Made by a program: the position numbers and the translations under genes | Notes under the pieces: generated by a model | Databases searched by the model: none | Told to the model about the DNA's origin: nothing | Seen by the model: the letters and a program-made list of their open reading frames with translations, nothing else | Assembly: GCA_005776475.1 (NCBI GenBank) | Contig: SXPB01000034.1 | Location: 3,380-67,379 of the forward strand | Source of the DNA: Planctomycetia bacterium | GTDB taxonomy: Bacteria > Planctomycetota > UBA1135 > UBA2386 | Direction: 5' to 3' | DNA length: 64,000 nucleotides | Shown: positions 1 through 64,000 of the stretch, piece after piece | How the letters are laid out: every line of letters starts with the position of its first letter | Numbering within the stretch: position 1 is the stretch's first letter

Positions 1-681
1 GACGGCGGCGAACGACCACCACCCCAGACGGGACAGTGGGGCGGCGAGTTGCGCTGCGGTCGTCGACAGCGGTTCGGCCTCCACGAAGCGCGCCGCGTCG
101 GCGGCGTTCGCGGCCAGGGTCTTGGCATCGAGCCGCGACGCGAACGCTGCCGCGAGTCCGATCGGCAACGCGGCGCGCAAGCGATCGAGTGCCCGTTCCA
201 TCTGCTTGCGCACGGTTGCCGCGGGACGCTCGAGGCGAGCCGAGATCTCGGCGCTGTCGAGCCCGGCTTCGAGGTGCAGCGACAACACGCTGCGATACGG
301 TTCGGGCAGACCGGCGATGCCGTTCGTGAGGGCCTGCCGCAGTTCGGAGTGCAGCGCGGCGTCGGCGGGATCCTCGACCGCCAGTACCGGTGCCGCTGGC
401 GCGCTGCGGCGTTCGGCGCGGCGCAGCATGCGGGCGTGGTTGGTGAGGATGCCGCACAACCAGCTCATCACGCGGTTGCCGGCATGAAACGTCTCGGCGC
501 GCGCGATGGCACTCAAGAACGTCGCCTGCACCAGGTCTTCGGCGTCGCTGGGGCGCGGCGCCAGGAACACGGCGAGGCGCAGCAGTTCGTCGGCGCGTCG
601 ATGGAACAACTCACCGAGCGCCTGGCAGTCGCGTTGGTCCTGGAACGCGGCGAACAGAGCTTCGTCGCTGCGGTGCGGCAT
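1..681 (-). CDS. ECF-type RNA polymerase sigma factor; its 3' end runs off the left edge of the window
   Basis: Absent from the ORF track because there is no stop inside the window. My reverse translation from the ATG at 681..679 gives MPHRSDEALFAAFQDQRDCQALGELFHRRADELLRLAVFL..DAEDLVQATFLSAIARAETF (region-2-like), then LPEPYRSVLSLHLEAGLDSAEISARLERPAATVRKQMERALDRLR (region-4 HTH-like). At least 55 more codons follow (..AAQLAAPLSRLGWWSFAAV), open to position 1. Confidence 0.8.
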   Translation of the reverse strand, partial: MPHRSDEALFAAFQDQRDCQALGELFHRRADELLRLAVFLAPRPSDAEDLVQATFLSAIARAETFHAGNRVMSWLCGILTNHARMLRRAERRSAPAAPVLAVEDPADAALHSELRQALTNGIAGLPEPYRSVLSLHLEAGLDSAEISARLERPAATVRKQMERALDRLRAALPIGLAAAFASRLDAKTLAANAADAARFVEAEPLSTTAAQLAAPLSRLGWWSFAAV

Positions 682-3182: not shown

Positions 3183-3809
3183 GTGACCGGCATGCCGTTG
3201 TCGTTGCGAGTACTGCTGGTGTTCGCAACGGCCTTCGTCTGTGGCGTCGCGTTGTGGGGTGACAACGCGGCCCACGCCGCCAGCACCGATGCCGAACGCG
3301 CCGCGGCCGCTGCGGCCGCATCGGCGATCGCCGCCGCGGCGGATCTGCCTGCCCTCGTCGAAGGGGATCTCGTGCGGGCGGTGCTGGCCATGGCGCCGGC
3401 GCAACGCGCGGACCTGGTCGTGGATGAGTTCGTCACCACGGCAGTGCTGTTCGCGCGCGCGGCGCCGCCGGCGGCGATCAGCCATGGTGGTGGGGTCGCG
3501 CTCGCGCAGCTCGACCAAGATCTGGCGAAGCTCGTGCAGCAGTCGTTCGCGCAGGCGGCGACGTACGCGGCTTCGCGCCGCAGTCGAGCCGACGAAGTGC
3601 CGCCGGAGTTGCCGGGCTCGGCGCTGTTCGCGATCGCCGGCGATCTGCACGGCAAGGGTGACTTCTACCTGCGTTGGCACACGGCGACGTTCGTGTGCGA
3701 ATGGGTGCGTCTGGGCGATGGTGCGGTGTTCGCGCGCTGGCGCGACTTCGTCGCCGATGCGGCGCAGCCGTGGTTGCGCGACGAATTGGGCGCCGGGCTG
3801 CGGCGCTGA
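3183..3809 (+). CDS. Hypothetical exported protein
   Basis: 208-aa ORF with an N-terminal hydrophobic signal-like segment (LSLRVLLVFATAFVCGVALWG). I recognise no family. Confidence 0.5.
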   Translation: MTGMPLSLRVLLVFATAFVCGVALWGDNAAHAASTDAERAAAAAAASAIAAAADLPALVEGDLVRAVLAMAPAQRADLVVDEFVTTAVLFARAAPPAAISHGGGVALAQLDQDLAKLVQQSFAQAATYAASRRSRADEVPPELPGSALFAIAGDLHGKGDFYLRWHTATFVCEWVRLGDGAVFARWRDFVADAAQPWLRDELGAGLRR

Positions 3810-5113: not shown

Positions 5114-5533
5114 CTACTTTCGGCGCGGGCGGAACAGGAACGTGAAGGTGCCTTTGGCGACGAGGCGCCCGTCCTGCAGCACCTCACTCTCGCACACGGC
5201 CAGGGTGCGGCCAATGCGCAGTGGGATCGCGACCGCCCGCAGCGGGCCGCCATCGAGCGTGCCGGCGGCGAGGAACTGCATGCTGCAACCGGTTCCCGTG
5301 ATGGCCTGGGTGGGACCCAGGTCGGGCCACAACAGCCACACCGCGGCGGTATCGGCGAGCGCAGTCAGGATGCCGCCCTGCACCACACCTTCCTCCTGCA
5401 GCAGTTCGGGGCGCACCGGCAGTTCCAGTTCGACGCGCTGCGGCGAACGGTGCACCAGACGCAGGCCCAGCCAGCGGTTGCACGGCGTTGCAGCGAAGGT
5501 CGACGAGGGATCCACGGACGGCGACGCTAACAT
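5114..5533 (-). CDS. PaaI-family (hotdog-fold) thioesterase
   Basis: This is the C-terminal 139 aa of track ORF 5114..5941: NRWLGLRLVH..VELELPVRPELLQEEGVVQGGILTALADTAAV..VCESEVLQDGRLVAKGTFTF. The ATG is at 5533. Confidence 0.8.
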   Translation of the reverse strand: MLASPSVDPSSTFAATPCNRWLGLRLVHRSPQRVELELPVRPELLQEEGVVQGGILTALADTAAVWLLWPDLGPTQAITGTGCSMQFLAAGTLDGGPLRAVAIPLRIGRTLAVCESEVLQDGRLVAKGTFTFLFRPRRK

Positions 5534-44971: not shown

Positions 44972-47032
44972 TCACAGGATGTCGAGGATGCCCGTCGACC
45001 CGTTGGTCAGCGTTTCCACCGACGCGCGGTAGTTCGAGTTGGTGCCGAGCTTGCTGTTCCACGGCAGCGACTCCTTGTCGGCGACGCCACCGAGCGCCAC
45101 CGCGGCGAAGGCGCGCGACAGCTCCTGCAGCTGGCTGTCGAAGAGCAGCTTCTTCAGCGGCTCGATCGTGCGGCTGTCACCGATGAAGCCGAGCGCCGAA
45201 GCGATTGCCGACAGCTTGGCCAGGTTCGGCTCGCCATCGGTCATCAGCTTCTGCAGGTCGTCAGCAACCTGCTTGTCGCCGAGCTTGCCCATCGCGATGG
45301 CCGCCTGCTGCAGCAGTTCGGTGCGGCGCGTGGCCTGCTTCATGACTTCGCGGATGTCTTCCTTGCTGCTGGTGTCGTTCATCAGCGCGAGGCCGATGGC
45401 GAGGTAACCCGCCTGGTCTTCCTTGGCGACGTTGTCCTTCATCAGCTTGCGCATGATGTCGGCCGCGTCCTTCGCCTTGGTCAGGCCCAGCGCGATCGCG
45501 AGGGCGCTGGTCAGCGTCGGGGTGCGGCTTTCCTTCAGCGCGTTGGTCAGCGTTTCGGCGACGAACGAGACGTCGGCCGCCGCGTCCTTCTCCAGGCGGT
45601 AGAACGACAGCACGCCGAGCGACAGCGCGCACCAGGGCTTCTCCTGGTCCTTGCCGGCCTTGTCGAACTGCTTCAGGATGCGTTCTTCGTTGATCGGGCC
45701 GCCGATCATGCCGAGGCCCAGCATCGCAAAGTTCTTGGTCTGGATGTCCTTGTGGTTCTCCCACGCGGCGAGCAGCACGTCGCTGAAGACGGCGTCCGGG
45801 TTCTTCTTGTCGTCCTTGTCGGCGTGCGGCTTCGCCAGCATGCCCAGCGCCATCGCGCACGACTGCGACACGAAGATGCTGGAGCGCTTGATCTTGCCCT
45901 TCTCCTGCAGGTCGTCGGCGAACAGCTTCTTGAAGTGGTCGCTGCGCTCGTGGTCGCGGCCGATCAGCTTGGCGATCGAGGTCGGCACGTGCGCCTGGAT
46001 CAACTGCTCACCCGAGCCGAGTTCCTTGGCGTAGTACTCCTCGAGGACCTTCACGACGTCGCCGAGCAGGATCTTCTCGGCTTCGGTGCTGTTGCCGATC
46101 TTCAGGATGCTCATGCCCTGGATCGCGGCGACCTTGATGTCGCGCTCGCGCACGTTGTTGTCCGTGAGCAGCTGCTTCATCACTTCGAACGCCTGCTTCT
46201 TCAGCTCGAGGTTCGTGGTCTTGTGCGCGGTGAGGCCGAGGCCGAACGTCGCGAACGCGCGCGTGCGGTTGTCGACCGAGCCACCCGAAGCGGCGCGGCC
46301 GTCGTCCTTGTCCAGCGCGAGGCCGGCCAGCAGCTTCATTTCGGCTTCGCCGGCGATCGCCGCGATGCCGAGCGACAGGGCCGCCGTCTCGCGGATCTCC
46401 TGGTCGTTCTTCTTCAAGCGCGGCGAGAAGATGTCGATCAGCTTGAAGTCCGGGTGGTCCTTGCCGATCTTCGCCATCGCGATCATGCACGACGAGTTGA
46501 TGTCGCGCTGCTCGGTGGCGTCGATCGCCTTCTTCAGGGCGGGCAGGATGTTGCCGGTGATCTGCTCGTCGGTCGGCTTCAGCGAGTCCTTCGCCTCGTG
46601 GCGACGGGTCGAGCCGAGATAGAAGTCGTCGCTACCGGTCGCAGTGCCACCGGCGCCGACTGCATCCTTCAAGCGGATGAAGGGGTCCTTGTTGAACTCC
46701 CACCAGAAGTTCCACTTGGTCAGGTCGTCTTCGATCTGGATGCCGCGACCACCGGTGGTCGGGCCACGACCGCCGGCCGGGCCAGCGGGGCCGCCGGTGC
46801 TCGGGCCACCAGGACCGCCGGTTGCCGGACCCGAAGGAGCCGGCGCGCTCGGGCCCGCAGGGCCACCCGTCGTCGGGCCAGTCGGACCGCCAGTGCGGCC
46901 GCCGCCACCACCGGGCGCGGGCGGAACAACGTCACCGGGACCACGATACTGACCGCCGTGGGCGCGACCGGTTTCGGGCAGCAAGGCCACGAGACCGGCG
47001 CAGCAAAGGCCTGAGAGCACGAACTTCTTCAT
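44972..47032 (-). CDS. Exported HEAT-repeat protein, paralog B of the HGGQYRGPG / FWWEF / GILDIL family
   Basis: 686 aa from the ATG at 47032, with AGGAG 6 nt upstream. Signal MKKFVLSGLCCAGLVALLPETGRA, then HGGQYRGPGDVVPP, a Gly/Pro linker, EDDLTKWNFWWEFNKDPFIRLKDA, HEAT-like repeats, and the C-terminus LPWNSKLGTNSNYRASVETLTNGSTGILDIL. Confidence 0.85.
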   Translation of the reverse strand: MKKFVLSGLCCAGLVALLPETGRAHGGQYRGPGDVVPPAPGGGGGRTGGPTGPTTGGPAGPSAPAPSGPATGGPGGPSTGGPAGPAGGRGPTTGGRGIQIEDDLTKWNFWWEFNKDPFIRLKDAVGAGGTATGSDDFYLGSTRRHEAKDSLKPTDEQITGNILPALKKAIDATEQRDINSSCMIAMAKIGKDHPDFKLIDIFSPRLKKNDQEIRETAALSLGIAAIAGEAEMKLLAGLALDKDDGRAASGGSVDNRTRAFATFGLGLTAHKTTNLELKKQAFEVMKQLLTDNNVRERDIKVAAIQGMSILKIGNSTEAEKILLGDVVKVLEEYYAKELGSGEQLIQAHVPTSIAKLIGRDHERSDHFKKLFADDLQEKGKIKRSSIFVSQSCAMALGMLAKPHADKDDKKNPDAVFSDVLLAAWENHKDIQTKNFAMLGLGMIGGPINEERILKQFDKAGKDQEKPWCALSLGVLSFYRLEKDAAADVSFVAETLTNALKESRTPTLTSALAIALGLTKAKDAADIMRKLMKDNVAKEDQAGYLAIGLALMNDTSSKEDIREVMKQATRRTELLQQAAIAMGKLGDKQVADDLQKLMTDGEPNLAKLSAIASALGFIGDSRTIEPLKKLLFDSQLQELSRAFAAVALGGVADKESLPWNSKLGTNSNYRASVETLTNGSTGILDIL

Positions 47033-47101
47033 GAGCAGCTCCTGATAGGTTGCAAGCGCGCAGCACACAGAGAGGGAAGGCAACAGCCGGCGCGCCCGGG
47101 C

Positions 47102-47131
47102 AATGTAGCCATGAGGACCCTCTCCATGCAA
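47102..47131 (-). promoter_or_regulatory. Candidate sigma-70-like promoter for paralog B (-35 TTGCAT, 18-nt spacer, -10 TACATT)
   Basis: These AT-rich hexamers stand out in the GC-rich spacer ~70 nt upstream of the ATG at 47032. This is pattern-based only. Confidence 0.3.
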
Positions 47132-47185
47132 AAGTGGGGCCAACGTTCTGGAGGGGGTTTGGAGGTGAGTCCGGCCCGCCGTGTG

Positions 47186-58966: not shown

Positions 58967-59043
58967 TGGTGGGCGTTGCAGGAGTCGAACCTGCGACCCT
59001 CAGCTTGTCGAGCTGATGCTCTAGCCAACTGAGCTAAACGCCC
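58967..59043 (-). tRNA. tRNA-Val (anticodon GAC), with CCA encoded
   Basis: The reverse complement folds by hand into a cloverleaf: GGGCGTT-TA-GCTC-AGTTGGCTA-GAGC-A-TCAGC-TCGACAA-GCTGA-GGGTC-GCAGG-TTCGACT-CCTGC-AACGCCC-A-CCA. The anticodon loop reads U-C-GAC-A-A, so position 33 is C. Confidence 0.85.
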
Positions 59044-61343: not shown

Positions 61344-62450
61344 ATGATCATCGGTGTCCCCAAGGAGATCAAAGCCCAAGAAAACCGCGTTGGCGCCGTG
61401 CCGGCCATGGTCCTCGACCTGGTCGCTGCCGGCCACACGGTGCTGGTGCAGGAGACCGCGGGTCTCGGCGCTGGTGTGACCGACGAGGCCTACCGCAAGG
61501 TTGGCGCGACCATGGTCGCCACGGCCAGCGAGGTCTACGGCAAGGCCGAGATGATCGTGAAGGTGAAGGAGCCGCTGCCGGCCGAGTACCCGCTGATCAA
61601 GAAGGGCCAGCTGCTGTTCACCTACTTCCACTTCGCCGCGGCGCGCGAGCTGACCGACGCGATGCTGAAGTCGGGGGCCAACTGCTTTGCCTACGAGACG
61701 CTGATCCACAAAGGCTCGCTGCCGCTGCTGACGCCGATGAGCGACGTGGCCGGCCGCATGTCCGTGCAGGTCGGCGCCGTCTGCCTCGAGAAGCACTACG
61801 GCGGCCGCGGCATCCTGCTCGGCGGCGTGCCCGGCGTCGAACCGGCGACGGTGGTGATCCTCGGCGGCGGCGTCGTCGGCACCAATGCGGCGAAGATGGC
61901 CGCTGGCCTCGGCGCCGACGTGCGCCTGCTCGACATCGACCTCGATCGCCTGCGCTACCTGAGCGACGTGATGCCGGCGAACGTGACACTGCTGCACAGC
62001 TCGTCGATCGCGATCCGCGAGCAGATCGTGCACGCCGACCTCGTCATCGGCGCCGTGCTGGTGCAGGGCGCGCGCGCGCCGCGGCTGATCCGCCGCGAGG
62101 ACCTGAAGTCGATGAAGGAAGGCTCGGTCATCGTCGACGTCGCCGTTGACCAGGGCGGTTGCATCGAGACCTGCAAGCCGACCACGCACGCCGATCCGAC
62201 CTACGTCGTCGCCGGCGTCAGGCACGACTGCGTCGCCACCAGGCCGGGCGCGGTGCCGCGCACGTCGACGTTCGGCCTGACCAACGCCACCGGCCCGTGG
62301 GCTCGCAAGATCGCCGGCATGGGTGCCGCCAAGGCCGCCGCGGATCCGGTGCTCGGCACCGCCGCCAACGTGCTCGCCGGCCAGGTCACGCACCAGGGCG
62401 TCGCCGAAGCATTCAACCTGCCGTACCGCGCGCCGAGCAGCGTGCTGTGA
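61344..62450 (+). CDS. ald: Alanine dehydrogenase
   Basis: [77 protein letters not shown]. Confidence 0.9.
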
Positions 62451-63299: not shown

Positions 63300-63575
63300 T
63301 CAGGCGCGCTTGTAGCCGAGCTGGCGGACGATCAGCAGGATCTCGCTCCAGCTCGGGAACGGGCGGCCGTTCTCCTTCTTGAAGCGATCGATCGCCGCAA
63401 TGAACTCGAGCGCTTCGCCATCGACCTCGGCGAGGCACGGCGACGAGCGGTCGGGTTCGTCGATGTCGGCGAGTGGATCGACCTTGCGCGCCACAGTCTT
63501 CTGCCGGGTCTTGCCCGCCGATCGAACGACGTGCTTTGGATGTGGCTTGGGCTTCTTTTTTACGGCGCTGACCAT
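63300..63575 (-). CDS. Small basic hypothetical protein (91 aa)
   Basis: Lys/Arg-rich N-terminus (KKKPKPHPKH) and a compact C-terminal segment (EALEFIAAIDRFKKENGRPFPSWSEILLIVRQLGYKR). It lies directly downstream of the mtnA fragment on the same strand. Confidence 0.5.
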   Translation of the reverse strand: MVSAVKKKPKPHPKHVVRSAGKTRQKTVARKVDPLADIDEPDRSSPCLAEVDGEALEFIAAIDRFKKENGRPFPSWSEILLIVRQLGYKRA

Positions 63576-63584
63576 GCCGCCGGC

Positions 63585-63917
63585 TCATCGACCGGCAGGG
63601 AACATGGCCTTGATCGAGGTTTCGAACGGGGCCTCGAGCACGCCTGCCTCGGTGATGATGCCGCGCAACAACTTCGCCGGCGTCACGTCGAAGGCCGGGT
63701 TGCGCGCCGGCACTCCCGCGGCCGCCACGCCGTGGCCCGCGAAGTGGGTGACTTCGATGCCATCGCGCTCTTCGATCGGGATCTGGTTGCCGGTGGCGAG
63801 CGTCAGGTCGAACGTCGACCGCGGCGCCGCGACGTAGAACGGCACCCGGTGCGCGAGGCACGCCAGGGCGAGGCCATAGGTGCCGACCTTGTTGGCGGTG
63901 TCGCCGTTGCCAACGAT
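63585..63917 (-). pseudogene. mtnA: 3' fragment (~110 codons) of S-methyl-5-thioribose-1-phosphate isomerase; the 5' two-thirds are missing at an abrupt composition junction
   Basis: [66 protein letters not shown] matches the C-terminal third of MtnA/eIF-2B-like isomerases. The track ORF's first 8 codons (MRPFLRRS) come from the unrelated AT-rich segment. Confidence 0.65.
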
Positions 63918-64000
63918 GGATCTTCTTAGAAATGGTCTCAAAGTTTAGGGGCTCGCAATCATGTAGAAGCAAACTATTTGTGATGACTTATTTTGCTGTA
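63918..64000. other. AT-rich segment of foreign composition at the window edge
   Basis: My hand count of 63921..64000 gives 29 G+C out of 80, against about 70% in the rest of the window. There is no coding continuity with mtnA. Confidence 0.8.

Follow-up and report, generated by a model that had tools for sequence, protein, structure and literature searches.

The 82-nt low-G+C right end of a Planctomycetia metagenome window, which truncates mtnA, is probably a contig-end assembly artefact

The 64,000-nt stretch of Planctomycetia bacterium DNA analysed here (the window) ends with 82 nucleotides, 63919-64000, that are probably a contig-end assembly artefact and not the edge of a genomic island. 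This reading is favoured because all the other assemblies of the population, and a related MAG as well, have the native mtnA locus intact, because the tail is an orphan without a mobile-element signature, because the foreign stretch is terminal in its source contig (it can continue for at most 1,087 nt beyond the window), because other NCBI contigs of the same population carry end tails of 53 and 85 nt while the ENA and Logan contigs do not, and because a patch of changes in the nearby ald gene (below) suggests poor local support in the source contig. The artefact could have arisen as follows: the 67,430-nt metagenome contig would have been extended at its end by DNA foreign to the genome, most likely taken from one read that was chimeric or lacked support in some other way, since the tail does not reach the length of a short read, and the gene caller would then have made a spurious 118-aa ORF from the join. 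As biology the junction is not a real feature, and the evidence does not support reading it as the boundary of an island or insertion.

The join is marked by an abrupt change in base composition. The window averages 69.8% G+C over positions 1-63918 and 68.9% in the mtnA fragment (63585-63918), and the tail has 36.6%, very much the switch from ~70% to ~36% that the first-pass annotation of this DNA had counted by hand. All other 82-nt segments of the window have a mean G+C fraction of 0.698 (sd 0.049, minimum 0.512), so that the tail lies ~6.8 sd under their mean, and the lowest value among the 82-nt segments in ~100 kb of the same genome is 47.6%. The gap between tail and host is 33 points. 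Ungapped alignments of the window to three near-identical contigs (L001, L002 and L003, Table 1) all stop at position 63918, which places the end of homology within one base of the ~63917 proposed earlier. At the next base, 63919, the window has g where the native sequence has c; read across the break, the window gives ..CAACGATG/GATCTTCT against native ..CAACGATG/CGGTCGGC, and native mtnA across the break is also given as ..CAACGATG/CGGTCGGCGCC (..CGATG/CGGTCGGCGCC). The join is abrupt and without bases common to both sides, and the tail opens with GATC (63919-63922), a Sau3AI/DpnII/MboI site. A dropout of coverage due to high G+C was considered as a cause of the break in mtnA and rejected: the local G+C of 70-80% is not exceptional for this genome.

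Table 1. Features at and near the right edge of the window, and the contigs that align to it up to the break
Feature or contig	Position or source record	Strand	Description
mtnA 3' fragment (S-methyl-5-thioribose-1-phosphate isomerase)	63585..63917	-	Codons 241-350 plus stop codon (63585-63587)
Spurious chimeric ORF, 118 aa	63585..63941	-	From the ORF list; TTG start and codons 1-8 (MRPFLRRS) supplied by the tail
Breakpoint	63918..63919		63918, last native base; 63919, first foreign base
Orphan low-G+C tail	63919..64000		82 nt, 36.6% G+C; begins GATCTTCTTAG
Error-like patch in ald	62212..62242	+	Five transversions within 31 nt, from A/T in the ENA contigs to C/G in the window
L001	ENA ERZ27257034, 79,382 nt		99.88% identical to the window up to 63918, ungapped
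L002	ENA ERZ27257035, 10,526 nt		99.83% identical to the window up to 63918, ungapped
L003	NCBI GCA_005801925.1, SXGS01708487.1, 1,942 nt		99.67% identical to the window up to 63918, ungapped

The break follows codon 240 of mtnA and leaves 110 residues (codons 241-350) in the window, all identical to residues 241-350 of the 350-aa MtnA of L001; the first-pass annotation had recognized these as the C-terminal ~110 residues of an MtnA-type isomerase, and this was correct. The native protein reads AIVGADR up to the break and then runs on across it. The minus-strand ORF that contains the fragment matches only profile positions 184-279 of 280 of the Pfam IF-2B family (PF01008, E 1.2e-29) and only positions 240-334 of 335 of TIGR00512, the latter with 134.2 bits against a cut-off of 279, and the 118-aa product therefore falls outside MtnA as delimited by a full-length profile match at the cut-off (the TIGR00512 equivalog or NF004326). 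The join does not restore the gene, as there is an in-frame stop 9 codons upstream of it. In short, the retained 110 residues are like MtnA (TIGR00512, IF-2B PF01008) in being identical to the C-terminal part of an equivalog-passing protein, and the window copy is unlike MtnA in having no residues 1-240 and in scoring below the family cut-offs. The mtnA copy as deposited is not a functional member of the family.

Was the join made when the window was prepared, or is it present in the deposited record? A homologue search with the 110 retained MtnA residues retrieved from a public protein collection an identical 118-aa product (P0001), MRPFLRRS followed by MtnA residues 241-350, which is recorded from a single NCBI contig of 67,430 nt. 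Because this protein carries the chimeric product, the join exists in the deposited record and was not made in window preparation. P0001 represents a 90% cluster that also includes the genuine 350-aa MtnA (P0121) of the ENA contig, and the close homologues are named methylthioribose-1-phosphate isomerase by their source records.

The native arrangement was read from the three contigs in Table 1, which were obtained by look-up of the neighbouring 91-aa ORF (63300-63575). Beyond the position that corresponds to 63918, L001 encodes a complete 350-aa MtnA that passes both TIGR00512 (383.7 bits against a cut-off of 279) and NF004326 (395.2 against 271), followed by purE and purC, and native mtnA runs ~360 nt further in L002 and L003. 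Thus the tail is not reproduced in these independent assemblies of the population, all three of which go on natively past 63918. The closest GTDB species representative, a Planctomycetota MAG (L004), has an intact mtnA whose product has 81% amino acid identity, and it keeps the gene order unk407-purC-purE-mtnA-orf91-uppP-ald. Most likely the organism's own mtnA is intact and is followed by purE and purC, as in all the other assemblies. The 91-aa minus-strand ORF used for the look-up lies between uppP and mtnA and belongs to no Pfam or NCBIfam family; its product is identical in four contigs, has 84% amino acid identity to its counterpart in L004, and has a basic N-terminus (KKKPKPHPK).

How much of the source contig lies beyond the right edge of the window can be bounded from its left edge as follows: The left edge cuts the gene for a 1006-aa sigma-70 fusion, of which window positions 1-681 encode the first 227 residues, and the complete 1006-aa protein (P0123) is recorded from the same 67,430-nt NCBI contig as P0001. 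The contig therefore extends to the left of the window by 2,343 nt or more, which leaves no more than 1,087 nt for its right side; the foreign stretch must then measure between 82 and 1,169 nt, and the contig ends after it. In run SRR8894379, two Logan contigs match the window with 100% identity, window-specific alleles included, and one of them stops 3,408 nt to the left of window base 1. Because this value is so near the 3,430 nt of the source contig that lie outside the window, we infer that the contig ends together with the window, which would be its last 64,000 nt, and that the tail has a length of exactly 82 nt. Searches for the left end of the contig in the next gene to the left, which encodes a peptidase M1, did not fix its position. 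Ten exact guesses at a cut peptidase product of 249-258 aa, as expected if the window is flush with the right end, were absent, an outcome that a single SNP or a left-end tail would also give, and the cluster tables do not record every cut product, as the peptidase cluster lacks the 246-aa Logan product of L074. In homologue searches with fragment queries the matches listed range only from about the query length to 1.75 times the query, and with a 260-aa N-terminal peptidase query the full-length 589-aa protein (P0125) was not among the matches listed. The first-pass annotation had suggested that the cargo of an island might lie just beyond the window; this is not borne out, since the contig stops within ~1.1 kb at most and probably has nothing beyond the window at all. 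The 1006-aa protein itself (window 1-681, minus strand, continuing to the left of the window; L073 2662-5682) has an N-terminal ECF-type sigma-70 part with regions 2 and 4 and a long C-terminal part with faint Ig-like and CarboxypepD_reg matches, an unusual architecture for a sigma factor.

The origin of the tail was sought in several collections. Neither the window nor the fetched loci (~1 Mb) contain a second copy of it. The search of the AT-rich stretch by BLAST that had been proposed earlier was run (blastn, word 11) and gave only chance-level matches (best E 2) against 72,556 plasmids and 50,697 phage records, the latter presumably including phiX and lambda, and no match against 20,395 E. 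coli records. A 30-mer from the tail has no exact match in the GTDB representative genomes, the JGI metagenomes or IMG/VR, and a second tail 28-mer has none in the JGI metagenomes or IMG/VR. When the four longest open frames of the tail were joined as one query, no protein with three shared 5-mers was found in a collection of 5.8 billion clusters, and a set of common adapters and primers does not match the tail. One frame is open across all 82 nt; by our estimate a fully open frame of this length and composition is expected by chance in about one of the six frames, more often than not, so the open frame is not evidence of coding.

Nor does the junction carry the marks of the better known kinds of element. 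On the 82 nt visible there is no transposase, no similarity to a known element and no further copy. A permissive Rfam search of 63500-64000 found two matches at chance level (E 1.5 and 9.2), neither of them in the tail, and no covariance model match at the element end of the kind that a group II intron or structured RNA element would give. Prophages and islands integrate at a tRNA or at the 3' end of a gene with an att repeat and an integrase; here the break is at codon 240/241 of 350, and no tRNA adjoins the junction, the only one in the window being a tRNA-Val at 58967-59043, ~4.9 kb away. An island would also not fit into the 1,087 nt of contig that can follow the window at most.

Two of the three contigs of this population in GCA_005801925.1 also end in unrelated DNA (L003 and L077), and the third (L081) ends clean. 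Positions 1-53 of L003 are a non-homologous 53-nt tail of 64% G+C at a contig end that lies inside mtnA; native homology begins at L001 9298, and the ENA contig L002 stops at L001 9295, 3 nt from this breakpoint. L003 also has three changes in 6 nt (T>G, T>G and A>G) at ~221-226. L077 (SXGS01206872.1) matches the window up to position 3421 and then has 85 unrelated nt of 62% G+C (L077 3838-3922, record positions 5390-5474, facing window 3422 onward). These translate to VPAVEKYLKPFLIGRPADRIDDLWQAMYN, which resembles MR_MLE_N, an N-terminal domain in the enolase superfamily, only weakly (E 0.0013, below the cut-off); the match suggests that part of an unrelated gene was joined on here. The ENA contig L078 stops at window position 3420, at the L077 breakpoint, where the reads may branch. 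By comparison, all seven ENA and Logan contigs aligned end to end (L002, L072, L074, L076, L078, L080 and L082) are without tails. A link between the tails of the window, L003 and L077 was rejected, as they have no mutual similarity. Three unrelated tails of 53, 82 and 85 nt at or near contig ends fit chimeric reads that extend contig tips and do not fit independent insertions. The pipeline that produced the other NCBI contigs presumably also produced the source contig.

Contig-end artefacts of this kind have precedents. Scaffold ends in assemblies can keep non-unique or unsupported sequence, and local assembly errors carry incorrect versions of genes on into databases (Chen et al. 2020, PMC7111523). 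The tail resembles the errors described there in its size (82 nt, below read length) and place (at or within ~1.1 kb of a contig end), in disagreeing with every other assembly of the population, and in that a wrong, truncated protein (P0001) has reached a public collection. It differs in two respects: those errors were defined by their lack of read support and the window tail is judged from assembled sequence, and the tail is not k or k-1 of the common assemblers in length, so that a chimeric read is a better match for it than the kept edge of a repeat. The first-pass annotation had left the choice between an inserted foreign element, a rearrangement and an assembly or chimeric join; the intact native loci, the orphan terminal tail and the similar NCBI end tails favour the last of these over the other two.

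What tells against an artefact is that an IS insertion, too, looks in a short-read assembly like an abrupt break at a contig end within a salvage gene that can be dispensed with. It is thus conceivable, if unlikely, that strain-specific low-G+C mobile DNA (an IS, a MITE, or the edge of an island or prophage) was inserted at mtnA codon 240/241, and that the assembler halted soon after entering an element that recurs or varies in the community. The break is a clean one in a gene of methionine salvage that is not essential, contigs often stop just inside repeats (PMC7111523), the window strain has its own alleles relative to the ENA contigs so that a private insertion is imaginable, and up to 1,087 nt of unseen contig could house a small element or even the rest of mtnA. 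The tail is indeed like an IS-disrupted gene at a short-read contig edge in its abrupt loss of homology within a coding sequence, the nearby contig end and the foreign composition. It is unlike one in that neither a transposase nor a second copy was found (the window and the ~1 Mb of fetched loci included), that only one junction is visible, and that a 33-point gap, 36.6% G+C in a 70% G+C genome, is extreme; the plasmid, phage, E. coli, GTDB, JGI, IMG/VR and protein searches likewise gave no similarity to the tail. A length of 82 nt also speaks against a stop at the edge of an inserted repeat: we know of no default k of MEGAHIT, metaSPAdes or IDBA-UD for which it would be k-1. Finally, insertion would need three separate events, in the window, L003 and L077, each no more than 85 nt from a contig end. 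That one uncultured, ~70% G+C Planctomycetota-like strain newly acquired a ~37% G+C element from a distant donor and so inactivated its mtnA seems to us improbable.

A technical join made after or outside read assembly, whether by concatenation or scaffolding of contigs without Ns or by residual adapter, vector or spike-in DNA, is very unlikely. The tail opens exactly with GATC, as would fit the end of a restriction-cut fragment, and the two sides meet abruptly, with no bases in common. At the break, however, GATC is missing from the native sequence, and two cut fragments were therefore not ligated there by their sticky ends; the restriction-ligation chimera that the leading GATC brings to mind is ruled out on this ground. 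A GATC would stand at this place by chance in ~0.3-0.4% of cases, which is not negligible over many windows, and neither the common adapters and primers nor the plasmid, phage and E. coli collections match the tail. That an internal rearrangement or deletion joined mtnA codon 241 to a distant native region is extremely improbable: a breakpoint relative to the native gene order is present, but no 82-nt stretch under 47.6% G+C occurs in ~100 kb of the genome, and the tail is absent from the window and from the fetched parts of the 79-kb ENA contig.

If the tail is an assembly artefact, as we think probable, it has little consequence for the biology of the organism, as the purC-purE-mtnA-orf91-uppP-ald locus is most likely ordinary and intact. 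The consequence is for data quality. A fake 118-aa protein stands in a public collection, where it represents a cluster that contains the true enzyme, and the chimeric contig end could be mistaken for a case of pseudogenisation or for the boundary of an island. More end tails and error patches occur in this NCBI-derived contig set, and contig ends should be trimmed or checked against reads before claims of gene loss or insertion are made from it.

The error-like patch in ald (61344-62450, plus strand) bears on the quality of the source contig near its right end. At the five changed positions the window has C, G, G, C and G, and the ENA contigs (L001/L070 and L002/L071) have A, T, T, A and T. 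All five changes (A>C or T>G) are non-synonymous, and together they alter the conserved motif YVVDGVxHYxVANMPGAVP (YVVDGVMHYCVANMPGAVP in the native protein) over a 19-residue stretch, in which the alanine dehydrogenase motif HYxVANMPG is destroyed; the D/H-Y-N-M pattern of the ENA allele is kept in three solved alanine dehydrogenases. A further A>C change at 61745 turns ald E134 into D and is also off consensus. Elsewhere the differences between the window and the ENA contigs are scattered, at about one per kb, and many are transitions. Miscalls between A and C and between G and T are the classic substitution errors of Illumina sequencing. The first base of the Logan contig L072 is at 62273 (62242 + 31), and this start fits a k=31 assembly in which the k-mers over that position are not solid or branch. 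The patch and the change at 61745 are thus probably read error built into the deposited contig, and they suggest that single poor reads entered its consensus.

Two minor features were noted in the same part of the analysis. The start of uppP overlaps the stop of ald by 4 nt (62447-62450, ATGA-type), as called in the ENA contig, and the longer 375-aa uppP ORF that begins at 62159 is probably an over-extension by the ORF finder. Farther to the left, an imperfect tandem repeat at 46776-46896 (period 24/48 nt, 2.5-5 copies, 66% matches) is contained in a minus-strand ORF of 723 aa at 44972-47143.
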